64,000 nt of DNA from Gammaproteobacteria bacterium (GCA_014075255.1 CP046178.1:1089616-1153615); one strand, 5' to 3'. Shown: positions 1 through 46,761, numbered from the stretch's first letter. Notes: generated by a model from the sequence alone, not told the origin. Numbers and translations are program-made.

Positions 1-19
1 CAAAAGTGCACTTAAAAAT

Positions 20-313
20 ATGAATTTAAATTCAAAAATTGATTGGTGGTTCATGCTGACACTCCTTGATGTCGTACATTATTATTCCCTTCGCTTGCAA
101 AGTTATGAGTACATTCCATTACCATCCGAACGAGGACACACCTCGCCAGACAAGCGAAAAAACCTATTAACACACCTTATTTTAAGGACTTACGAGCGTT
201 TTAAAGACTATATGTATCGGATGTTTGATACCGCGGGTCAAACGATTTTGAGGACTAACGGATGTTTTATTAGGATGCGTGGAATGGAATTTATTTGTGA
301 CTTGAATGTTTGA
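20..313 (+). CDS. hypothetical protein with no recognisable domain
   Basis: 97 aa ORF from the six-frame track. I recognised no motif. It is convergent with the downstream O-methyltransferase gene. Confidence 0.2.
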   Translation: MNLNSKIDWWFMLTLLDVVHYYSLRLQSYEYIPLPSERGHTSPDKRKNLLTHLILRTYERFKDYMYRMFDTAGQTILRTNGCFIRMRGMEFICDLNV

Positions 314-332
314 AGATTTGCAATAAATTTAT

Positions 333-1325
333 CTATATTTTACAACCCACTACAACACTCCAGTACCCAGTAGTTGGCATTATTTGAATATTTTGAAATC
401 CAGACTTTTTTAGAATTTTTTTAACTTCACTTCCAGTATATTGCTTACCTTCAGTCCAGGCCATCATGCCAACATTCCCTGCTGATGCCATTAAAGGGCC
501 AGATTTATCATCATCAAAAAGCATTTCATGAATAATAATTTTTCCTTGTTCGGGTAGGCTCTGAAAACTTTTTTCAGCAAGAAGTAGACATTTTTCTTCT
601 CGCCAATCATGAAATATTTGCGAGTAAAAATGCACGTCAGCTTTTGGGAACTCGCATTTCCAAAAATCATCAGAAACAAATTTTATTCTTGCTTGTAAAT
701 TGTATTCTGATAATAATTTTTTAGCCGCGGTTATAACAGTTTTAATATCAAGAAGTACTGCACTTAAATGCGGATAATATTTTAATATCCCTATTATATG
801 TGCGCCAGAACCACCTCCCACATCAAGCAGTGTATGGTTACTTGAAAGATCAACTTTATCCGGCCACCCTAATGCTGCAGACATACTTGCACTGTGCATG
901 GCATGAGTAAACTTTTCAGATTTATCATTATCGTCAATATGAGCATCAAATATATCAACTCCACTATACACTTGAGGCGAATTGGTTATTACAGATTGCT
1001 TTAATTGCTCACATGTCCAGTTCGATTTATTCGATAATGCCAACATTCCACCAAAATAAGTTTCACTTTCTTTAAGCAAATATTTCTTTGAAACATCGGT
1101 TAATGTATATTTCCCATTTTTCGAAACAACAAACCCTAAATTTACCAACATCAACACTAACGCCTCTACTGGTCTTTCCTCCAAACCCAATTCATTTGAT
1201 AGTCCTAGTAATGTTTTTGAAGAGTCTGAAAGTTTCTCAAATATCTCAAGATCATGAGCCACAATGAGAGTGTTATAACTAATTCGACCAGCAATTACAT
1301 CCCAAACAAGAGTGTCATCTACCAT
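333..1325 (-). CDS. class I SAM-dependent O-methyltransferase (family 2, CrtF/HIOMT-like)
   Basis: Glycine-rich SAM-binding motif LDVGGGSGAHIIGIL..LLD. N-terminal winged-helix dimerisation-like region. 330 aa. Overlaps the upstream ORF by 7 nt, consistent with an operon. Confidence 0.7.
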   Translation of the reverse strand: MVDDTLVWDVIAGRISYNTLIVAHDLEIFEKLSDSSKTLLGLSNELGLEERPVEALVLMLVNLGFVVSKNGKYTLTDVSKKYLLKESETYFGGMLALSNKSNWTCEQLKQSVITNSPQVYSGVDIFDAHIDDNDKSEKFTHAMHSASMSAALGWPDKVDLSSNHTLLDVGGGSGAHIIGILKYYPHLSAVLLDIKTVITAAKKLLSEYNLQARIKFVSDDFWKCEFPKADVHFYSQIFHDWREEKCLLLAEKSFQSLPEQGKIIIHEMLFDDDKSGPLMASAGNVGMMAWTEGKQYTGSEVKKILKKSGFQNIQIMPTTGYWSVVVGCKI

Positions 1326-2116
1326 TCTCTTATACTGCTACCTTCATACTTTATGCGATTACATCTAAATGGAAAAAACATATTCTCTGGCTTTTCTGCT
1401 GCATCTATAAAGCACGTTGTAAAACCTATACTAAATGAGACCAACAGATAATTATAATATTCTCTGGGAGTTAGCCCTTGGTCAGCAGCAAGTCCAGCAG
1501 CAACCGCAGCAATGTTTGCTTTTTTGCGCCAACGACCCTCACTAAGAATTTTTTCAACATCAAATACTAGTTTCAAGTACTTTCCATTCGCTAAACCAAG
1601 TTTATGCGCTAACTCTACTAGAGGTTTTATTCTCTCGTCTTCTTTAACTATTGGTCTTGCATACCCAAAAATTGCTCTAAAATTTTTTAACTCGCTTAAG
1701 ACAATTTCAGACAATTCCTTATTATTTTCAATTTGCTCCTGTGCACGGTAGAAAAAATCAATAGCCCTGATATCAGGACGTCGGCCATATAAAAGCGCTT
1801 CAGACATTGCACTTGAAGCACCCACTGCTAGACATGCAGTGCTTCTTGCAGTCCCTGCTAATGATGATACTCGATTATTCCAAATTCGTGGATCAGGATA
1901 ACTTGTACATATAGTCCAAATTGAATCGAATAATTGTATTTGCTTTTTTGAAAACTCACGACCAGTTACTCCATATAGCAATAACTCCATCCATGATTTA
2001 TTTGAAAATTCGGTAAATAAATCTTTATCGCGAAAAACTACTCTTTCTCCAGGAAATACAAGCCCCATAGTAGTTTCCCACCTGTGCTCAAATTTGAATA
2101 AATCATCGTTACTCAT
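1319..2116 (-). CDS. citrate synthase-like protein (short, citryl-CoA-lyase-like; catalytic His apparently absent)
   Basis: 265 aa. Region GTARSTACLAVGASSAMSEALLYG resembles the citrate synthase ST.STVR.VGSS/GPLHGGA block, but there is no His at the His274-equivalent position. Confidence 0.5.
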   Translation of the reverse strand: MSNDDLFKFEHRWETTMGLVFPGERVVFRDKDLFTEFSNKSWMELLLYGVTGREFSKKQIQLFDSIWTICTSYPDPRIWNNRVSSLAGTARSTACLAVGASSAMSEALLYGRRPDIRAIDFFYRAQEQIENNKELSEIVLSELKNFRAIFGYARPIVKEDERIKPLVELAHKLGLANGKYLKLVFDVEKILSEGRWRKKANIAAVAAGLAADQGLTPREYYNYLLVSFSIGFTTCFIDAAEKPENMFFPFRCNRIKYEGSSIREW

Positions 2117-2128
2117 GCTTTAATTCGA

Positions 2129-2944
2129 TTACTTATCACGTGATTCATTTTTCAGATTTACTTGATGCAAGAAAAAAGGGTATCTATTACAGCCATAATA
2201 ACTTTGCTCAAGTGCGTTCGCGCCAGCCCCAGGTAATCTTAACAGTAGATACAACATTTCACCCTGTTCTTTAGATAATTCCAAATCTCTTAATGCAGTT
2301 GCAATTAAGCCTGTAAAAGAAACTGGAATCTGGATAATTTTTTCTAACTCAGATTGATTGTTTTTAAGCCAATTAATATTAGAGTTTGAATTAGTTAACG
2401 ATGATAACTTGTCTAAAGTTTTCATTACTGGTGTAGGACAAGTTACACCGTGCGGATCAAATCCCGGTGGATGCTCCATAGGTAGCCAAATATCTGCACG
2501 CTCTTCTTTTGGCGGATTTAATAATATTTCTTTCCACTTTGTAATATCTTGACCACATTCTTCCCATAACTGCATAACCAAAAACACTTCTCTCGCACCG
2601 CCATATTGCCCGGCTCCTACCGCAAGCGCTGCCATTAAAGCTGAAGCAGCGGTTGAACCACCAACACCTGCATTCATTGCAGCACGGACACTGTGGTCAC
2701 GTATTCCTGGATTCGCAATTGCAACTGCAATCGTTTCAAGTAGCGTAGCCTGCTCTTTTGTAGGTTTTTCTAATTTAAAAAGAAGATATAAATATTCAAT
2801 CCAACTTGCTTTTCCTAACAAGTCCCCATACACATCGTAACCCGCACAAAAACACTTTTTTGCAGCAAAGGGATTGTCTGGTTCAGGTTCTTCTCTCCAG
2901 ATTTTTGAATGAATGACTTCTTGTTTTTTTTCTTCCGAGGACAT
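2129..2944 (-). CDS. citrate synthase-like protein (paralog of the adjacent gene)
   Basis: 271 aa. NAGVGGSTAASALMAALAVGAGQYGGAREV aligns to the citrate synthase small-domain motif ..GPAHGGANE, with Tyr replacing the catalytic His. Confidence 0.5.
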   Translation of the reverse strand: MSSEEKKQEVIHSKIWREEPEPDNPFAAKKCFCAGYDVYGDLLGKASWIEYLYLLFKLEKPTKEQATLLETIAVAIANPGIRDHSVRAAMNAGVGGSTAASALMAALAVGAGQYGGAREVFLVMQLWEECGQDITKWKEILLNPPKEERADIWLPMEHPPGFDPHGVTCPTPVMKTLDKLSSLTNSNSNINWLKNNQSELEKIIQIPVSFTGLIATALRDLELSKEQGEMLYLLLRLPGAGANALEQSYYGCNRYPFFLHQVNLKNESRDK

Positions 2945-3056
2945 TATCGGTAACGCTTGCTATGGGAATTTAGACTTTACTAAATATAACTTTAAAAGCT
3001 CGGAATAAAAACAAAGGCTTTATGTATTTTAAGAAATGCTTATGCTAATAAATAAT

Positions 3057-4961
3057 TTATTTAAGCGTGCCTAATGCTTTTAATCGATTATCAATTGGCG
3101 GCACTTCGTCTTTATCAATGCGCACATCTAAAATCACCGGACCATCTAACATTAACTCTTTAACATTTAATGCTTCTAAATCATCAATTGAATTAATCAA
3201 ACGACTCGTGATGCCCATTGAATCTGCGTACTGAACAAAATCAATCTTTGGCAACTCATAACCAACGGGTTCGCCGCCGCCTAAATTTTGGCCGTGTTTT
3301 ACCATGCCATATTCTGAATCATTAAGAATAATGAAAAATACGGGTAATTTTTCTTGTAAGGCTACTGTTACTTCACCGCCATACATCAGCATTGAACCAT
3401 CACCGGTTATACATACCACTGGGTGTTTATCATTTGCTAGCGAAGTTCCAATTGATGACCCAATTGCCCAGCCCATAGAACCAAATTCTAAGCAGGTCCA
3501 AAATAATCCGCCATGCTCATCTCTTGATCCCGCAACGCGTCGATCATACGGATGCAAATAATGTATCGACCACGCCATGCTATTACCGGAATCACATAAA
3601 TATTTTGTTTCGGGAGGAAATATTTTTGGCAATAATGTCATAAGCCTTTGCGGCTTAATTGGAGCACTATTGTCAGTACATTTTTTTTCTTCCAACAACT
3701 TAAATGATCGTTTTAGTTCTGATTCATTTAAAGTATTGCTGCGGCTTTTGCTTGAACCTCTATCATTAGAGGTCGCTATTTTTTTAATATCAAGACTGTT
3801 TTCAACTTCTTCAAATACTTTTGCAACATCTCCTCTAACGTGTAAACGCGCCATTGGAGAATGCATTAAATTACCTTCCGAAGAATCAATGTGTATTAAT
3901 CGTTGATTTAACACTTTTTGATCCCAAGTATTACTTGCGGTCTCACTGAGTGTTGTTCCGATTGCAACGATGGTATCTACTTCATCATCAATGACATTGA
4001 TTGCGCTATCGTGCCCTGCAAATCCTAAAACGCCACAGAATAATGGATGAAATGGACTAACAAGCCCTTTTGCGTGAGGCGTAGTTACAATCTTTGCATT
4101 TACACTCGTTGCTACATTTAAAATTGGCCCTATTCCATTCAAACAACCTTCACCGACAATGAATACAATATTCTTTGATGATGAAAGTTCTTTTGTAAGT
4201 ATCTCTACACTGTCACTATCAACTGGTTGTGGCTTCCAAAGTAAATTAGCTAAATCGTTCGATGGATAATTAACTGGGCTAGCAGCTCTTAGAACATCTA
4301 AAGGAATACTGAGATGGGCTGGTCCCATCGGTGAACGAAATGCTGTCATAATTGCTGAAGCTAACTTCTGTTCAAATTGGTTAACGTGAGATACCAATGT
4401 ACTGAAATGAGTACAAGGCTCAAACATTGCTACAGTATTAATTCCTGTATCACCCGATTCTTGCGCTGCATTGCGCCCAAAATTTTCTAGCGCAGTTTGC
4501 GCTGTTATAACCAGTAACGGTGAATGATTATCATATGCGGAGGCAACTCCTGTTATAAGGTTTGTAGCACCAGGCCCTGCAGTGGCACAACATACACCCA
4601 AGTTACCACTATTACGCGCATAACCATCCGCCATAAACGCAGCACCCGTTTCATGTCTGGCTACTACCGCTCTTGGCCCACCCCTTTTAGCACTGCGCGA
4701 CAATGCGTTGTACAACGGTTCGATTGCGCCACCAGGAATACCAAATACAAATTCAACACCTATGTACTCTAAGTAGGAAACAAGTAAATCTCCCACTTCA
4801 TAAGATTCTTTCGAAGTGATCGGCGCAGCATCGTAAACTTGCGAATCATTTGCTGTAGGCAAATCAACAACATTGCGCGCACCAATCTCTAATGCATCGC
4901 TCTTTTCTGTAACGATATCCATTAAAGATGCAGAACTAATGTCATCTCCGTTTGCAGCCAT
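3057..4961 (-). CDS. thiamine-pyrophosphate-dependent enzyme, acetolactate synthase / benzoylformate decarboxylase-like
   Basis: N-terminal Pyr domain (YLEYIGVEFVFGIPGGAIEPLYNAL, CATAGPGATN). C-terminal TPP-binding motif GDGSMLMYGGEVTVALQEKLPVFFIILNDSEYG. 634 aa, with about 60 aa of N-terminal extension and an insertion of roughly 70 aa before the TPP domain. Confidence 0.7.
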   Translation of the reverse strand: MAANGDDISSASLMDIVTEKSDALEIGARNVVDLPTANDSQVYDAAPITSKESYEVGDLLVSYLEYIGVEFVFGIPGGAIEPLYNALSRSAKRGGPRAVVARHETGAAFMADGYARNSGNLGVCCATAGPGATNLITGVASAYDNHSPLLVITAQTALENFGRNAAQESGDTGINTVAMFEPCTHFSTLVSHVNQFEQKLASAIMTAFRSPMGPAHLSIPLDVLRAASPVNYPSNDLANLLWKPQPVDSDSVEILTKELSSSKNIVFIVGEGCLNGIGPILNVATSVNAKIVTTPHAKGLVSPFHPLFCGVLGFAGHDSAINVIDDEVDTIVAIGTTLSETASNTWDQKVLNQRLIHIDSSEGNLMHSPMARLHVRGDVAKVFEEVENSLDIKKIATSNDRGSSKSRSNTLNESELKRSFKLLEEKKCTDNSAPIKPQRLMTLLPKIFPPETKYLCDSGNSMAWSIHYLHPYDRRVAGSRDEHGGLFWTCLEFGSMGWAIGSSIGTSLANDKHPVVCITGDGSMLMYGGEVTVALQEKLPVFFIILNDSEYGMVKHGQNLGGGEPVGYELPKIDFVQYADSMGITSRLINSIDDLEALNVKELMLDGPVILDVRIDKDEVPPIDNRLKALGTLK

Positions 4962-5946
4962 CTCTCAACTCTGGTGTGTTTAAACTATTATTTATGTAAG
5001 TGTATTAAATATACGTGATTTATTTATTGAAGTGATCTCGTAATAGTTTGTATTTACAACTATTAACAATGTATTCATATTTATTTTTAGTTGTTATTAA
5101 GCAAAATACAACACTTTACGTGTGTTTAACATGCATTTATTTACTATTTTTCAAGTGTATTCATAAGTAAATGATTCTTGGAGAATTTAAAGAATCCATC
5201 CATTGTCCACACGGTAAGACAAGCCAATCTAGAATTTCGAATCGTTAAAAATTTTATTTAACCACCTAACAACCAAGTTAATGGAACAGTAACGAAGCTA
5301 TGGTTAGTGATAACAGACATATATGCGGCTAATACAATTATTAAATAATACATGCTTAGCTACCCCTCTATTTATATCGAACCTTTACATAAAACCCTCA
5401 GTAACCTTTATAAATGCTATTTGCAGATAATTATAATAACCAATACGAGCTATTAAACTTTAAAAGTGCGTAATGAATTTATAGATGCAAGCTAAGTGCG
5501 CTTATCTTCTAAAGATTGAAATCAGATATCTTTAAGACCGAATTCAAACCATATTGATTCGCAGATACCGATGAGACAAAACACCTTTTGGCACTTCTTC
5601 AGCAAACGCCTATTGAGATATATGAATACCTATTTCAAATTGTATATTTGAAATCTACCGCTATATCACTCTAAATATTCTAAAAACAATAAAAACATTT
5701 AAGAATAGTCACTTAGCGGATTTGCTTAACTAACTGCTATAAATGTAATGCTTTTTTCTGCAGAAAAGTTAAGCAACGAAGTTAAATTTCTTATGAAAAT
5801 ATAGAATTTTTCGTTACATTTTTTTCGCTAATTCATGCACACTTGCAAGACATATCACAGTTCATCATATTATTCCTTTTTAGAATGCTCATGAACTCTG
5901 ATAGGGAAGCACTATCTAATAAGAGTAAAACGAAACCGCTATTCCC

Positions 5947-7344
5947 ATGAACTCAACATTGCGCACATTTAAAATATTAATACTCGCTGTTGCAGTGGTC
6001 GCAATTCTTATTGTTGTTAATCAAAAGTATTCTTCATCTTTATTGCACGAAATTAAACGCGATAATAAATTAACGGTTATTACGCGTAACAGTCCCACCA
6101 CTTATTATATAGGTCCGAATGGACCCACTGGTTTTGAATATGAACTTGCAAAACAGTTTGCAGACTTTTTGGGTGTTGAACTAAACATCATTGTAAAAAA
6201 CGAATTTCACCAAATATTACCTAGCATTGTAAATAATGATGCGCATATTGGTGCTGCTGGAATTACCCATACCAAACAACGTGATGCCTATGTCAACTTT
6301 GGTCCTGAATATACCAAGGTGGTCTCACAAATCGCTTATAAAAGTGGCCAAAAAAAGCCTAAATCTATCGTCGACCTTGAAGGCAAACGTATAGCGGTCG
6401 TCAAAGGCAGCTCTCATGCCCAAATGCTACTAGATCATAAAGAGTTTTTCCCAAATCTAGAGTGGAAAGAATACCCCGATTTAACTTCAGAAGAGCTGAT
6501 GCTATTAACCACAGATAGTTTGATTGATTACACAATCGCCGATTCAAATGAACTTGCCGTAACGCGACGTTATTTTCCAAAATTAAGAGTCGGTTTTAAC
6601 TTAGGTCCAGAACAACCTCTTGCATGGGCCTTAAGAAAATCAGAAGACGATTCTTTACAAAAAGCGGTTAATAATTTTTTTGTGAAAATAGAAAGTGATG
6701 GTTCGCTAACACACTTAAGAGAAAAATATTTTGGTCATATAAACGATATAACTCCAGTAGATAGTCATACATTTCTTAAACATGTACGTGAACGTTTACC
6801 TAAATATGAAAATCTTTTTAAGGAAGCTGCTATTGAATATGACCAAGACTGGCGATTTCTTGCAGCAGTAAGTTATCAAGAGTCATTATGGAATTCGAAT
6901 GCTGTTTCTCCCACGAGTGTTAAAGGCTTAATGATGCTTACCCGTGATACCGCTAATGATCTCAACATTAAAGATCGTGTTGATCCACATAAAAGCGTAA
7001 ACGGTGGAACGAAATATTTTTTATCGATGCACGAAAAAATACCAGCACGCATTGGAGAGCCAGATCGCACCTGGATGGCCCTTGCTGCTTACAATGTTGG
7101 ATTTGGTCATTTAGAAGATGCACGAATTCTGACCCAAAATGCTGGCGACGACCCAGATCAGTGGATGGCGGTTCGAAAATATCTTCCGCTTTTAAGTAAC
7201 AAAAAGTGGTATGAAAAAACTCGCCATGGTTACGCACGAGGCAAGGAACCTGTGATCTACGTACAGAATATACGCAACTACTTTGATTTATTAGTTTGGC
7301 TAGAAAATAAGGGCGAACTTTACGACATGGTCGCACAAAACTAG
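5947..7344 (+). CDS. mltF: membrane-bound lytic murein transglycosylase F
   Basis: Signal/TM segment, a family-3 solute-binding domain, then an SLT domain (AVSYQESLWNSNAVSPTSVKGLMMLT, AYNVGFGH). Confidence 0.8.
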   Translation: MNSTLRTFKILILAVAVVAILIVVNQKYSSSLLHEIKRDNKLTVITRNSPTTYYIGPNGPTGFEYELAKQFADFLGVELNIIVKNEFHQILPSIVNNDAHIGAAGITHTKQRDAYVNFGPEYTKVVSQIAYKSGQKKPKSIVDLEGKRIAVVKGSSHAQMLLDHKEFFPNLEWKEYPDLTSEELMLLTTDSLIDYTIADSNELAVTRRYFPKLRVGFNLGPEQPLAWALRKSEDDSLQKAVNNFFVKIESDGSLTHLREKYFGHINDITPVDSHTFLKHVRERLPKYENLFKEAAIEYDQDWRFLAAVSYQESLWNSNAVSPTSVKGLMMLTRDTANDLNIKDRVDPHKSVNGGTKYFLSMHEKIPARIGEPDRTWMALAAYNVGFGHLEDARILTQNAGDDPDQWMAVRKYLPLLSNKKWYEKTRHGYARGKEPVIYVQNIRNYFDLLVWLENKGELYDMVAQN

Positions 7345-7353
7345 CAATTTTTA

Positions 7354-7839
7354 TTACCTACGCTGGCGAAAAAACTGCTGCAACATCTCTGCACTTTTTT
7401 TCTCTAAAACTCCGCCCTGTACTTCAACCGAATGGTTATGCCTTGCGTCAGAAAGCACATCAAACACAGTTCCCGCCGCCCCAGTTTTTGGATCATATGC
7501 CCCGAAGACCAGCCTTTTTACTCTAGCGTGCAAGATTGCCCCCACACACATCAGACAGGGCTCTAAAGTTACATAGAGTGTGGTTTTAACTAATCGATAA
7601 TTTTCAATAGTTTTAGCCGCATCACGTAAAGCCATAATTTCTGCATGTGCGGAGGGATCATTACTAGCAATCGATTGATTCCATCCTTTACCGATAATCT
7701 TATCCTCAAGAACCACTACCGCACCTACAGGAACTTCTTGTTGGCTCATTGCATGCTCAGCCAAACTTAAGGCTTCATGCATCCATTTTTGATCATCAGT
7801 CAAAGAATTAAGGTCGCTGTTAAAATCATTCCCACTCAA
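7354..7839 (-). CDS. tadA: tRNA-specific adenosine deaminase
   Basis: CDA fold motifs [12 protein letters not shown] and PCLMCVGAI. 161 aa. Its start overlaps the guaA stop. Confidence 0.85.
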
Positions 7840-9385
7840 TCGTGGCGGGCGGTTTCCCCGAAATATCGTAAGTCACTCTAGAGATTCCCTCAATCTCATT
7901 AATAATACGACGCGACACATGATCCAAAAACTCATAAGGAAGATGCGCCCAACGCGCGGTCATAAAATCAATAGTTTCTACAGCTCGCAAGGCAATCACA
8001 TAATCATACCTTCTTCCATCACCCATCACGCCTACTGATTTTACCGGCAAGAAAACAGCAAAAGCTTGTGAGACATCGTCATATAATTTATGCAATCTTA
8101 ATTCTGAAATAAAAATATCATCCGCCAGTCTCAATAGATCTGCATATTCTTTTTTTACTTCACCCAGTATGCGCACACCTAAACCGGGCCCAGGGAAAGG
8201 ATGGCGATAAATCATTTCGCGCGGCAAACCAAGTTCTTCACCCATTTTGCGCACCTCATCTTTGAAAAGTTCTCGCAATGGTTCCACTAATTTTAATTTC
8301 ATATCTTTTGGCAAGCCACCAACATTGTGATGCGATTTAATTAAATGTGCTTTGCCCGTAGAAGAACCAGCAGACTCAATAACATCTGGATAAATTGTGC
8401 CTTGCGCTAACCATTTAGCATTTTTTAATTTAGAAGATTCATCTTCAAAGATATTAATAAATAGGTTACCTATAATTTTGCGTTTTTTCTCAGGATCAAT
8501 CTCGCCTCTCAATTCATTCAAATAGCGTTGCTCTGCATTAACACGAATTACTTTCACACCCATGTGTTGCGCAAAAGTTTCCATTACCTGATCGCCTTCG
8601 TTTAAACGCAATAACCCTGTATCTACAAATATACAAGTGAGCTGTTCACCAATAGCTTTATGTAACAAAGCAGCAACTACCGATGAATCTACACCCCCTG
8701 ATAAACCGAGAATAACTTGATCATTGCCAACCTGTTGCTTAATGTTTTCAATCGACTCATTAACGATGTTTGCAGAGGTCCAATCGGAACCGCACCCACA
8801 AATATCACGAATAAAACGTCCTAATATTTCTTTACCTTGTTTGGTATGGGTAACTTCTGGATGAAACTGTAAGCCGTAAATTTTTAGTTGTTTGTTCTCT
8901 ATTGCGGCAATCGGCGCACTATCTGTACTTGCAATAACTTCAAAGCCATCAGGTAGTGTTGCAACACGATCTCCATGCGACATCCAAACATCCAAGCAAT
9001 TCTTGCCGTCAGAAATGCCATCTAATAGTTCGCTCCCACTCTCAGTATTCACTTGCGCATAGCCAAACTCTTTTTCATTTGACTCTTCAACATCACCACC
9101 TAGGTGTTTAGAAATGGCCTGCATACCGTAACAAATCCCAAGCACAGGAATGCCCAGTTTAAAGATTTCATTGGAAACTTCCGGTGTATCTTGCAGCGTA
9201 ACGGATTCAGGGCCACCAGAAAGAATGATACCCTTTGCACCAAAAGCAGTGATTCTTTCTAAAGCAATGTCCCAAGGATAGATTTCACAATACGTTCCAA
9301 GTTCGCGAACACGTCTTGCAATCAGTTGTGTGTATTGAGATCCAAAATCCAGGATTAATACTTTATCGGCATGAATATTTTTCAT
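7826..9385 (-). CDS. guaA: GMP synthase (glutamine-hydrolysing)
   Basis: N-terminal GATase1 domain ([28 protein letters not shown]) and ATP-PPase SGGVDSS motif. 519 aa. Confidence 0.95.
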
Positions 9386-9421
9386 GAAAAACTAAAATTT
9401 GAAATGATGCACGAAGATAGT

Positions 9422-10891
9422 TTATTCGACGTGATAATTTGGTGCTTCCTTAGTGATCGTCACATCATGCACATGACTTTCTCGATTGCCGGCAGCAGAT
9501 ATTTTCACAAACTCAGGTTTAGTACGCATTTCATCAATCGTTCCACAACCCACATACCCCATACTTGAACGCAGCCCGCCAAGAAGTTGTTGGATAATAT
9601 TAACTACAGTCCCTTTATAAGGCACACGACCTTCAATACCTTCTGGTACAAATTTGTCTGCGCCGCCTTCTTCATCTTGGAAATAACGATCACTAGAACC
9701 TTGTTGCATGGCTGACAAAGAACCCATACCTCGGTAACTTTTATAAGAGCGCCCTTGAAAAAGCTCGACTTCGCCCGGAGCTTCTTTAGTTCCAGCAAAC
9801 AATCCACCAATCATAATGGTGTTTGCTCCTGCAGCTATGGCTTTGGCAATATCACCTGAATAACGAATGCCACCATCTGCAATTATGGGTACCTTGCCTT
9901 TTACTAATTCGCTTACATTATCAACTGCACTAACTTGCGGCACGCCTACTCCGGCAACTATACGGGTTGTGCAGATGGATCCAGGTCCAATACCCACCTT
10001 TACCGCATCTGCGCCTGCTTTAATTAAATCTAAAGCAGCTTCACCCGTAGCAATATTTCCGCCAATAACTTGCACTTCTGGAAAGTTTTTCTTCACCCAA
10101 GCGACGCGATCCAACACCGCTTGCGAATGACCATGCGCGGTATCCACCACGATCACATCCACTCCAACTTGCACAAGTTCTGTAACACGTTGATCAGTTT
10201 CCGCACCCACACCCACTGCAGCACCAACAATTAACCGCCCTTCATGGTCTTTACACGCTAATGGGAAGTCTTTTGATTTTTGAATATCTTTAACTGTTAT
10301 TAGCCCACGCAATTCAAAATCATCATTTACCACTAAAACTTTTTCAATTCGATGCTCATGTAAAAGTTTTTTAATTTCACCTTTACTCGCGCCTTCTTTA
10401 ACAGTAACAAGTCGATCTTGCGGCGTCATGATTTTTGATACTGGCTCATCTCTACGTTTTTCAAATCGTAGATCACGGCTGGTTACAATACCAAGCAATG
10501 ATTCTCCCGCTACAACTGGCACACCGGAAATATTTTTTTCGCGCGTAAGCTCCAGCACTTCACCAATACTGGTATTGGGTTCTACACAAATGGGTTCTTT
10601 GATTACACCGCTTTCAAATTTCTTAACCGCTCTGACTTCGCTAGCTTGTTGAGTCACTGAAAGATTTTTATGAATGACCCCAAAGCCACCTTCTTGCGCC
10701 ATCGCGATCGCTAAGCGAGCTTCTGTTACGGTATCCATTGCAGAAGAAACCAGCGGCATGTTGAGACTAATTTCGCGAGTTAGCTGAGTCTTAAGTTCAA
10801 CTTCGCGCGGTAAGACGCTAGAGTGAGCTGGGACGAGAGAAACATCGTCAAAAGTGAGCGCGTCTTGTTTGATTCGCATTGTGCGGTCCAT
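9422..10891 (-). CDS. guaB: IMP dehydrogenase
   Basis: TIM barrel with CBS pair. Catalytic-loop [11 protein letters not shown] motif. 489 aa. Classic guaBA arrangement. Confidence 0.95.
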
Positions 10892-11210
10892 GTGCCTAAG
10901 TGGCGGCTCATTATAGTGATTGCGCGATACGCGGTAAACTTAATTTATGCGCATGGATGTACTGTATGCCGGTAACGCAGGAGCAGTTATCGGTATTATG
11001 CCCATGAACGGACTGTATGAACGCAGAAGATACGGTTCCATGGATAGAATCGGTAGCGTCGAATCAGGAACAGAGGTCCAGAGTAATGCCAGGAGCGATT
11101 ATCGACGACAGCATGAATGCAGGAGATAGAACAACGCTGGAGCAGTTACCGAGGAACAATACTCGCGAACCATTAACGACTACAATCTACACTGTCAATA
11201 ATCAAGTACT

Positions 11211-12581
11211 ATGCCCAATATGGATAGCTCTCAAATAGGAATGGATCTCGAAGAACGGCAAATATATTCCGTCCTGCAACTCAATCGAGAAGTTAAACAA
11301 CTATTACAACAAAACTTTCCATTACTATGGGTAGAAGGCGAGCTCTCTAATGTGGCGCGTCCCGCTTCAGGACATATTTATTTCTCGCTAAAAGATCAGC
11401 AAGCACAAGTTCGTTGCGCGATGTTTCGCAAGGCAAATTTAGGCTTAGCCTTTCAACCTGAAAATGGCATGCAAGTATTAGTACGGGCACGAGTCGGTAT
11501 ATACGAGCCTCGAGGTGAATACCAACTCACCATCGAACATATGGAAGAAGCGGGTGTTGGTATTCTGCAACGCAGATATGAGGCATTAAAACAAAAACTC
11601 AATCAAGAAGGCCTGTTCGACCCAGACAATAAACAACCACTACCCTCTTATCCACATGCTGTAAGCATCGTAACCTCTGCAACTGGAGCCGCGATACGTG
11701 ACATTCTTAGCGTGCTACATCGTCGCTATCCCCTGCTTACTATTCGCATCTATGCCGTGCCGGTTCAAGGAAATAAATCGGCCGCTGCTATCGTAGACGC
11801 CATTCAAGAGATCAATAAACGTAAAGACGCTGATGTGGTGATTGTTTCTCGAGGAGGTGGCTCGATAGAAGATCTTTGGTCATTCAATGAAGAAGAAGTT
11901 GCACGTGCAATCTATTCCTCCAAAATCCCAATCGTCGCAGGCGTCGGCCACGAAGTAGATTTTACTATTGCCGATTTTGTTGCCGATGTGCGTGCCGCCA
12001 CACCCACTGCAGCAGCAGAACTTATTACTCCACATCAAGATGAACTGCTAGAAACATTTATACAATATGAAAATACTCTGCTTTGCTTGTTGCGCGATTC
12101 GATAAGCAATTTTCATCAAGCTGTTGACTGGATGACACAACGCTTAGAATCTTTACATCCCAAACAAATTATCCAACGCAAACAAGAATTCTTAATCGAA
12201 TTACAGCGACGCGCGCATAGTGCCGTTAAACTTAAGTTGTCAGACCGAGTAAATCTGCTAAGTAGATTATCACTCAGGTTTGAAAGCCATTCTCCCCATG
12301 CACGTGTAAGAGAAGCTAAAATTAAATTAATCGATCTCCACAAACAGATGCACCGAAGCATTCAGACCCATCTGCAACAAAAGCAACAAGATATACATGC
12401 TTTAGCTAGAACTCTGGATGCAGTCAGTCCATTGGGTACTTTGAATCGTGGCTATGCCATTGCCAGCCACCGGGCAAGTGGACAAATTTTGCACAATAGT
12501 AATCAGGTATCAAAAGATGACGAAATATCTATCCAAGTGGCCAAGGGGCATATTTTCGCTAAGGTTAAAGGTAAGCAATAA
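11211..12581 (+). CDS. xseA: exodeoxyribonuclease VII large subunit
   Basis: OB-fold N-terminus (LLWVEGELSNVARPASGHIYFSLKD) and ExoVII catalytic core (VSRGGGSIEDLWSFNEE). 456 aa. Confidence 0.9.
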   Translation: MPNMDSSQIGMDLEERQIYSVLQLNREVKQLLQQNFPLLWVEGELSNVARPASGHIYFSLKDQQAQVRCAMFRKANLGLAFQPENGMQVLVRARVGIYEPRGEYQLTIEHMEEAGVGILQRRYEALKQKLNQEGLFDPDNKQPLPSYPHAVSIVTSATGAAIRDILSVLHRRYPLLTIRIYAVPVQGNKSAAAIVDAIQEINKRKDADVVIVSRGGGSIEDLWSFNEEEVARAIYSSKIPIVAGVGHEVDFTIADFVADVRAATPTAAAELITPHQDELLETFIQYENTLLCLLRDSISNFHQAVDWMTQRLESLHPKQIIQRKQEFLIELQRRAHSAVKLKLSDRVNLLSRLSLRFESHSPHARVREAKIKLIDLHKQMHRSIQTHLQQKQQDIHALARTLDAVSPLGTLNRGYAIASHRASGQILHNSNQVSKDDEISIQVAKGHIFAKVKGKQ

Positions 12582-31386: not shown

Positions 31387-31463
<77 letters not shown>

Positions 31464-46674: not shown

Positions 46675-46761
46675 TGGTGCCGATGGCCGGACTCGAACCG
46701 GCACGAGGTTGCCCCCACTAGCCCCTCAAGCTAGCGCGTCTACCAATTCCGCCACATCGGC
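46675..46761 (-). tRNA. leuU: tRNA-Leu (anticodon GAG) with long variable arm
   Basis: Reverse complement gccgatgtggcggaattggtagacgcgctagcttgaggggctagtgggggcaacctcgtgccggttcgagtccggccatcggcacca. The uuGAGgg anticodon loop and class II variable arm are present. Lies next to secG as leuU does in E. coli. Confidence 0.85.

Follow-up and report, generated by a model that had tools for sequence, protein, structure and literature searches.

What is the purpose of a compact group of genes that combines a thiamine-dependent enzyme with two truncated citrate synthase-like proteins and a methyltransferase? The group lies near the left end of a 64,000-nt stretch of DNA (the window) from Gammaproteobacteria bacterium (GCA_014075255.1 CP046178.1:1089616-1153615), and its four genes are all read from the minus strand; they encode a 634-aa thiamine-diphosphate-dependent carboligase (positions 3057..4961), two proteins of 271 aa and 265 aa that we refer to as A (2129..2944) and B (1319..2116), and a 330-aa class I S-adenosylmethionine (SAM)-dependent methyltransferase (333..1325). 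An initial annotation, made from the sequence alone, described a co-directional, tightly spaced operon bordered by AT-rich DNA, and both points hold: the open reading frames (ORFs) are separated by gaps of 112 nt and 12 nt, the methyltransferase and B genes overlap by 7 nt, and the upstream spacer (4962..5946) is 985 bp long with a GC content of ~0.28-0.33. We describe here evidence that these four genes seem to be the enzyme half of a conserved and apparently undescribed seven-gene module of environmental Gammaproteobacteria that would control cyclic di-GMP (c-di-GMP) signaling. The interpretation we favor, to which we assign a probability of roughly 55%, is that the enzymes make a diffusible molecule (methylated in this lineage), that a TonB-dependent receptor re-imports it, and that a binding protein and a kinase would sense it in the periplasm.

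A conserved module extending beyond the window

The methyltransferase gene was at first taken to be the end of the operon, but the cluster continues: a minus-strand gene for a TonB-dependent receptor has its start codon at position 54 and extends past the left edge, so that only the first 18 codons, corresponding to the signal peptide, are in the window (1..54). The larger unit could not be seen initially because the window breaks 54 nt into this gene. It is revealed by public contigs retrieved with protein B, of which those at loci L006-L009 are identical to the window across the cluster; the 18 codons translate as MNHQSIFEFKFIFLSALL, exactly as the receptor ORF begins on L006, which is itself identical to the window there. 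The receptor ATG has an AAGGAG ribosome-binding site upstream and ~680 further codons past the left edge, with the protein being 682 aa as called on the contig and ~700 aa if read from the ATG at position 54. On this contig the methyltransferase gene is followed by a 278-nt spacer, the receptor gene, a gene for a binding protein of family PF04392 (302 aa), and one for a 1504-aa hybrid kinase.

We compared 83 non-redundant loci, drawn from 80 that are the best B matches of 241 GTDB species together with loci collected earlier. ORFs were called in all of them and searched with the seven module proteins, and the counts given here include only loci with enough flanking sequence. A and B co-occur in 83 of 83 loci, with short gaps or overlaps between them, and the thiamine enzyme is present in all 65 loci scored; the receptor is found in 62 of 67, the PF04392 binding protein in 57 of 64, the kinase in 55 of 59, and the GGDEF/EAL domains in 48 of 53. 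The methyltransferase is present in only eight of 50 loci, and its gene takes one of three places: it can follow B, lie between the genes for the thiamine enzyme and A, or come behind that for the receptor. The view of the four genes as the conserved unit does not survive these counts; co-conservation holds for the thiamine enzyme, A and B, and fails for the methyltransferase. The conserved unit is the thiamine enzyme, A, B, the receptor, the PF04392 protein and the GGDEF/EAL sensor kinase, together with a variable tailoring gene. The order thiamine enzyme, A, B, receptor, binding protein, kinase also occurs in Nitrosococcus oceani ATCC 19707 (Noc_1268 region), a cultured strain, and in several metagenome-assembled genomes (MAGs), with unrelated flanking genes.

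Relatives of B are present in 241 of 185,579 species (one genome per GTDB species), nearly all of them Gammaproteobacteria. The hosts include Methylococcales, Thiotrichales, Chromatiales, Porticoccaceae/SAR92, Cycloclasticus, Sedimenticola and Thiogranum, with Nannocystis, one Planctomycetota genome and Gallionella as rare outliers; Nitrosococcus, Gallionella and the sulfur oxidizers among these are chemolithoautotrophs. The B family is small and tight (625 matches at E<=1e-3 and 142 at E<=1e-30 among 1.84 billion representatives), and B has no match in 72,556 plasmids. The locus was initially not recognized as a known pathway, and full-text searches of open-access literature likewise found no description of the module, or of BbmA and CsmA, the nearest solved relatives of its thiamine enzyme.

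The thiamine enzyme

The product of 3057..4961 has all three domains of its family (TPP_enzyme_N, M and C; PF02776, PF00205 and PF02775) above the Pfam thresholds, with 129, 79 and 98 bits respectively, and both the cofactor-activating Glu (in ARHETG) and the GDG...ND cofactor motif are readable. It falls under every acetolactate-synthase equivalog cut-off in NCBIfam (best 279 vs 538 bits), and the gene for the acetolactate-synthase regulatory small subunit is absent from every locus examined. Among solved and curated proteins it is nearest to BbmA (277 bits) and CsmA (262 bits), represented by PDB 8x3x and 8x3z, and to ScyA-related proteins; the best-scoring acetolactate synthase, E. coli acetolactate synthase I, trails at 202 bits. 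Alignment with BbmA runs end to end (residues 56-622), the long inter-domain linker included, although the similarity is moderate, and the score against the ScyA-related model NF035927 is 244 bits vs a cut-off of 1000. The profile comparisons thus agree with the early description of a carboligase-type enzyme dependent on thiamine diphosphate, and place it in the BbmA/CsmA/ScyA-related branch of the acetolactate-synthase superfamily; it is not predicted to be a true acetolactate synthase.

BbmA is a Brevibacillus protein whose family includes a Thermosporothrix hazakensis protein with 51% identity. T. hazakensis has an aromatic acyloin synthase, Thzk0150, which may be the protein found here. 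Citryl-CoA-lyase-like partners were sought beside the BbmA-like gene and none was found; this gene adjoins one for a ketoacyl synthase III (KAS III)-like enzyme, and BbmA is therefore informative about the first step only.

The unusual insertions reported in the initial annotation can be accounted for, although they are two different things rather than one. One is an N-terminal segment of ~40 residues that 70% of 67 orthologs lack or do not conserve, and its codons (4842-4961) may reflect either a real start further downstream or a lineage-specific extension. The other is the linker at residues ~385-420, which is variable but present in all 67 orthologs, and which aligns in BbmA too.

Proteins A and B have a citryl-CoA-lyase fold and lack the catalytic triad

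Proteins A and B score 16.2 and 21.1 bits against Citrate_synt (PF00285), under the Pfam gathering threshold of 27. With the citryl-CoA-lyase models of NCBIfam (PRK06224; cut-offs of 193-261 bits) A scores 52.6 bits (vs 212) and B 32 bits. The best solved sequence match for both is 6hxp, the citryl-CoA lyase of Hydrogenobacter thermophilus (E 4.5e-7 for A and 0.024 for B), and hhalign against a citryl-CoA lyase sequence gives 96% probability for A and 96% for B. Foldseek also returns 6hxp as the best match of the predicted structures (A, E 3e-6, TM-score 0.57-0.60; B, E 7e-6, TM-score ~0.6); ATP-citrate-lyase modules, citrate synthases and PrpC rank next. A and B are 25% identical to each other over 129 aa, with an hhalign probability of 88%. 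By these alignments and models, A and B are assigned as distant paralogs with the all-helical citrate-synthase fold of citryl-CoA lyase, in keeping with the earlier view of them as truncated citrate synthases of the citryl-CoA-lyase type.

To locate the catalytic residues we mapped the 6hxp motifs SAHGGA, GYGHRYY and LNVDGA onto alignments of 34-35 orthologs (citrate-synthase residues are given in pig numbering). In A, the SAHGGA segment containing His274 reads GQ(Y/L)GGA, with Tyr114 in the window protein at the His position and the Tyr itself unconserved; in B there is no His. The GYGHRYY segment (His320) is deleted from A and is an invariant GYGRP in B, with Arg at the His position. The Asp of LNVDGA (Asp375) is Thr or Ser in A and Ala in B. 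All three catalytic residues are gone from both ~270-aa proteins, which extends the original observation that neither has the catalytic His, and a canonical role as citrate synthase or citryl-CoA lyase is excluded for both. Two arginines have a different fate: Arg329 of the DPR motif is lost from A and kept in B as DER, and Arg401 of GRVPG is kept in A as LRLPG and lost from B. In citrate synthase both arginines hold carboxylates of oxaloacetate or citrate, so that each protein retains one carboxylate-binding arginine. Other positions are strictly kept, with the invariant motifs IWxE..E..NPF, NPG(I/P)RDHSVRAAMNAGVGGS, W...H.PGFDP and LRLPGAA.HALEQ in A and SYPDPRIWNNR, SEAxxYG, DERIxP and EGxFFPxxC..Y.G...W in B. 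Public records label A as 'citryl-CoA lyase' and B as 'citrate synthase'. The loss of the catalytic residues, scores below the cut-offs of the curated families and the absence of an adjacent citryl-CoA synthetase all bear out the early impression that this is not central metabolism.

The best evidence at hand for a heteromer of A and B comes from gene fusions. Five proteins among the representatives (P0304, P0346, P0353, P0367 and P0368) are A-like in their N-terminal half and B-like in their C-terminal half, as verified with hidden Markov models built from the A and B alignments, and the halves are in the same order as the separate genes. These natural fusions indicate that A and B are likely to function as a heteromer, and they are also consistent with the dimeric citrate-synthase fold. 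All five fusion genes adjoin the thiamine-enzyme gene or stay within two genes of it. For example, in the locus of P0346 (L095) the thiamine-enzyme gene overlaps the fusion gene by 4 nt, and P0367 is encoded between a dehydrogenase and the thiamine enzyme, in a group that lies beside a gene with a nonribosomal peptide synthetase (NRPS) condensation domain. The P0353 locus (L092) contains genes for a receiver-PAS-GGDEF-EAL protein, the thiamine enzyme and the fusion, with a receptor, a dehydrogenase, a kinase and a PF04392 protein on the other strand, and the P0304 locus (L093/L094) codes for the thiamine enzyme, a binding protein that belongs to a different family (SBP_bac_5), the fusion and a dCache-GAF-PAS kinase. 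The thiamine enzyme and the A/B pair thus appear, from their gene associations, to be the enzymatic core of the module, and this core is repeatedly linked to a binding protein and a sensor kinase, also where members of other protein families take these places.

Fusions of a second kind, with two B-like halves in tandem and verified with the same models, are represented by P0278 and by two proteins in the Nannocystis MAG locus L020 (3-1526 and 6331-8061). This locus also has an extra A-like gene and a LysR regulator, and the receptor, binding protein and kinase are absent from it. In the Planctomycetota MAG, B is fused to a C-terminal SRPBCC/polyketide-cyclase-like domain (L062, 9995-11281), again verified with these models.

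Tailoring genes vary among lineages

The 330-aa methyltransferase has Methyltransf_2 and Dimerisation domains above the Pfam thresholds (137.6 and 29.2 bits) and a SAM motif I, LLDVGGGSG. Its nearest solved relatives (RedM, DsyB and ASMT) act on O, N or S atoms. Its presence in only a few of the loci marks it as an accessory tailoring gene, and other lineages have a short-chain dehydrogenase and/or a carbamoyltransferase in its place. Such lineage-variable tailoring is as expected for a secondary metabolite or a signal.

Acyl-activating genes are present near some versions of the module, a hint of an acyl substrate that is not universal. These include a protein with PP-binding, AMP-binding and acyltransferase domains at L019 (5424-8273, minus strand), a 678-aa protein with a weak PP-binding match alone at L011 (7059-9095, minus strand), and AMP-binding genes downstream of the kinase gene in L004 and L006.

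The receptor, binding protein and kinase

The receptor has plug and beta-barrel domains, and its nearest solved relatives are CirA (94 bits), PirA, BtuB and FepA, with scores of 60-94 bits. The 302-aa binding protein has a cleavable signal peptide and belongs to PF04392 ('ABC_sub_bind'), although it matches solved proteins of this family weakly (3lft, E 7e-8); the ligands bound by solved members of the family are Trp, Tyr or Phe (PMC10443332). The 1504-aa kinase contains HAMP, HisKA, HATPase, three receiver, Hpt, GGDEF and EAL domains, and topology prediction places membrane segments at residues 15-42 and 179-209, flanking a ~135-aa periplasmic domain that precedes the HAMP domain. The genes for the binding protein and the kinase are neighbors in almost every locus, including those where the pair is inverted, and no ABC permease or ATPase family recurs across the loci. 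Since the binding protein has no transporter components to work with, the most plausible role for it is that of a co-sensor for the kinase, as in LuxP-LuxQ and TorT-TorS.

The kinase is a single 1504-aa ORF in L006 (15221-19736) and is represented by overlapping ORFs of 549 aa and 975 aa in two other assemblies (e.g. L008, 6023-10537), which suggests either a frameshift in this gene or a discrepancy between the assemblies there.

A model for synthesis, re-import and sensing

Because the enzymes are coupled to uptake and sensing functions, we read the locus as a make-and-sense module rather than as a metabolite pathway. Synthase genes and sensor are genetically linked: the binding protein and kinase accompany the enzymes in 55-57 of the 59-64 loci scored, and do so in two of the distant fusion loci as well. 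From its family, the carboligase would couple two units derived from 2-oxo acids, giving an acyloin or an alpha-hydroxy-beta-keto acid. An obligate A/B heteromer would then bind a carboxylate-bearing intermediate and transform it by way of non-canonical residues. Loss of the acid-base triad counts against a textbook Claisen mechanism, since A and B cannot use the acid-base chemistry of citrate synthase; a chemically attractive, if unsupported, option for this step is that an acyl-CoA adds to the ketone and the adduct then lactonizes to a butenolide. Tailoring of a hydroxyl or keto group would follow and differ with lineage, by the methyltransferase here and by a dehydrogenase or carbamoyltransferase elsewhere.

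The product is presumed to be released from the cell and to cross the outer membrane again through the dedicated TonB-dependent receptor, where the orphan PF04392 protein could capture it in the periplasm. We infer that the sensed ligand is the module's own product and that the pathway runs in the direction of synthesis, which chemolithoautotrophic hosts such as those noted above favor over catabolism. The binding protein would signal to the hybrid kinase, and a phosphorelay ending in the GGDEF and EAL domains would change the level of c-di-GMP.

Several observations weigh against this model. There is no exporter gene in the module. The 278-nt spacer in front of the receptor gene has a conserved block of its own, and the enzyme and receptor halves may therefore be separate transcripts. 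The co-occurrence counts are biased upward, since the 80 loci are the closest relatives of B, and among the five distant fusion loci the receptor is present in only one and the binding protein and kinase in two (L092 and L093/L094). The AlphaFold models of A and B are moderate (pLDDT, the predicted local distance difference test score, of 73.6 and 70.5), with the most conserved motifs in low-confidence regions (residues 78-99 of A and 72-115 of B), and an A/B pair without canonical catalytic residues may be a non-catalytic scaffold or carrier.

Other explanations were considered against the same data. In the main rival, the enzymes would make a metal carrier, a small alpha-hydroxy-carboxylate or catechol-type chelator, with the receptor importing the metal complex, the binding protein and kinase sensing it in the periplasm, and the acquisition of metal as the chief role. 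TonB-dependent uptake is typical of metal chelates, the receptor is nearest to the catecholate-siderophore receptors CirA, PirA and FepA, along with BtuB, and a product of the acetolactate type is an alpha-hydroxy acid that could bind metals. Nonetheless we think this unlikely, because a scan of the window that allowed up to 3 mismatches found no Fur box, and Fur-like sites upstream of the thiamine-enzyme and receptor genes are barely commoner than elsewhere across the loci (0.077 vs 0.050 per kb, from 5 weak matches), which is no real enrichment; no inner-membrane transporter, reductase, TonB/ExbBD, NRPS or NRPS-independent siderophore (NIS) synthetase recurs, and the predicted output is c-di-GMP turnover rather than a transcription factor acting on the receptor gene. 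The lack of a recurring inner-membrane importer is equally awkward for the idea that an external compound is taken up and broken down, with the thiamine enzyme and A/B acting as C-C lyases, since the cytoplasmic enzymes would have no supply. Benzaldehyde lyase and 2-hydroxyacyl-CoA lyase are among the solved matches of the thiamine enzyme, A and B match citryl-CoA lyase best in their fold, and some hosts (such as Cycloclasticus and Porticoccus) are hydrocarbon degraders; however, the citryl-CoA-lyase catalytic residues are missing, tailoring genes that vary among methyl-, carbamoyl- and reductase types are what one usually sees in biosynthesis, and the module is present in obligate chemolithoautotrophs such as Nitrosococcus oceani and Gallionella. 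Breakdown is accordingly an improbable role.

A simpler alternative, close to the initial annotation, is that the four genes form a self-contained biosynthetic operon for C-C bond formation and O-methylation, and that the receptor and sensor genes are neighbors without meaning. The tight spacing with one overlapping pair, and the 278-nt spacer with its own conserved block before the receptor gene, would fit this, but the methyltransferase is the least constant member of the group, and the receptor, binding protein and kinase accompany the core across differing flanks and gammaproteobacterial orders, with binding protein and kinase still beside the distant fusions of L092 and L093/L094; we regard it as very improbable. 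The public names of A and B, and their citrate-synthase-family fold, could also be taken at face value, as an acetolactate synthase with a split citrate synthase or the citryl-CoA lyase of a variant reverse tricarboxylic acid (TCA) cycle. This housekeeping role is almost surely wrong: A and B both lack the three catalytic residues and score below the Pfam and NCBIfam cut-offs, no locus has succinyl-CoA-synthetase-like (citryl-CoA synthetase) genes, the partner is always the thiamine enzyme, and the B family is confined to ~241 of the 185,579 species.

Conserved non-coding segments

The first of two conserved non-coding blocks is at 142..262 (minus strand), within the 278-nt spacer (55-332) upstream of the receptor gene. 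The same block is present at this place in 12 non-redundant loci, irrespective of whether the methyltransferase or the B gene comes before it. The block contains the palindrome TTGATCCACGGTATCAA and the invariant stretches GATCCACGGTAT.AA, CCGA.AC.T, GTAA.TC.TTAAA.TA and TTCGC...GCGAGG, and RNAalifold gives it only -4 kcal/mol, without covariation support. The other block (5041..5176, minus strand; ~135 nt) is within the 985-bp spacer, ~85-220 nt upstream of the thiamine-enzyme gene, and is 80-85% identical in the four closest relatives (L045, L017, L013 and L016). It has the inverted repeats AACAC-N7-GTGTT and ACAACTA-N27-TAGTTGT, and its RNAalifold covariation term is unfavorable. A riboswitch or RNA leader was considered at both positions and set aside, given this weak or unfavorable covariation and the lack of any Rfam match in window positions 1..7500 at E values up to 1. 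The weak RNA signal makes DNA-level elements likelier, and the blocks are more likely to be operators or promoters, of the receptor gene and of the operon respectively, for a regulator encoded elsewhere.

Promoter and terminator scans were at or below chance, the repeats in the 985-bp spacer are unremarkable, and this spacer has no ORF of >=60 aa and no small ORF of note. There is a further conserved block at its far end, beside the mltF-like gene (~5596-5946). A 97-aa ORF on the plus strand (20..313), antisense across the receptor start and leader, is called as a gene on public contigs, but it has no Pfam match, its weak tblastn matches parallel how well the leader is conserved at the nucleotide level, and it is probably spurious.

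Neighboring genes

Window positions 5947-12581 contain housekeeping genes, including an mltF-like gene, tadA, guaA and guaB (9422..10891, from synteny with L006), as well as the gene for the exonuclease VII large subunit, placed at 11211..12581 by synteny only. This gene order is common to L004 and L006 and is not found in Nitrosococcus or the other loci, and the module therefore occupies different genomic contexts. The remainder of the window is ordinary; an Rfam search of the whole window identifies only two tRNAs (31390-31463 and 46678-46761).

Relationship to known systems and implications

Every component of the module comes from a known protein superfamily, and a synthase with a cognate sensor is a known kind of system. 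The closest enzymatic comparison for A and B is with 6hxp and the ATP-citrate-lyase module, with which they share a truncated citrate-synthase fold of ~260 aa, the DPR-type Arg in B and the GRxPG-type Arg in A. They differ in having no His-His-Asp triad, in being two diverged and sometimes fused paralogs rather than one homo-oligomeric protein, in having a thiamine enzyme in place of citryl-CoA synthetase as partner, and in a context of signaling and uptake rather than carbon fixation. In its logic the module resembles LuxS/LuxP/LuxQ, where an autoinducer likewise comes from a dedicated synthase and an orphan periplasmic binding protein, which has no transporter, presents it to a hybrid kinase that combines a periplasmic domain and a phosphorelay. 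Here, however, the synthase, the PF04392 family and the kinase are unrelated to the Lux proteins, a TonB-dependent receptor is added, and the relay ends in GGDEF and EAL domains of the same polypeptide rather than in a transcription factor. The PfeA receptor of Pseudomonas with PfeS/PfeR, which senses ferric enterobactin in the periplasm, is likewise a receptor of the CirA/PirA/FepA type tied to periplasmic histidine-kinase sensing, but the module lacks a Fur signature, a classical siderophore synthetase and a transcriptional response regulator, and has a separate binding protein for sensing.

Three features appear to be new: a heteromeric citryl-CoA-lyase fold without the triad that is always accompanied by a thiamine carboligase, a dedicated TonB-dependent receptor as part of the module, and direct wiring to c-di-GMP. 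We tentatively suggest, at rather less than even odds, that together they might define a new class of signaling, in which an acyloin-type signal is made by a thiamine-dependent carboligase and a new enzyme family, heteromers of the citryl-CoA-lyase fold whose whole catalytic apparatus has been replaced, is diversified into 'dialects' by methylation, carbamoylation or reduction according to lineage, is actively imported through a TonB-dependent receptor in order to be perceived, and acts through c-di-GMP.

One consequence concerns annotation. The public labels of A and B are a recurrent misannotation that could mislead metagenome reconstructions into reporting a reverse TCA cycle, and the comparisons here correct it. 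If the model is true, the citrate-synthase fold would have a new enzymatic use, and perception of a signal would depend on TonB-powered import and feed straight into c-di-GMP. The module is widespread in uncultured marine and freshwater Gammaproteobacteria, and its presence in the cultured Nitrosococcus oceani makes it directly testable there. It would then represent a new chemical language for ammonia oxidizers, methanotrophs, sulfur oxidizers and the SAR92/Porticoccaceae group, bacteria whose signaling is poorly understood.

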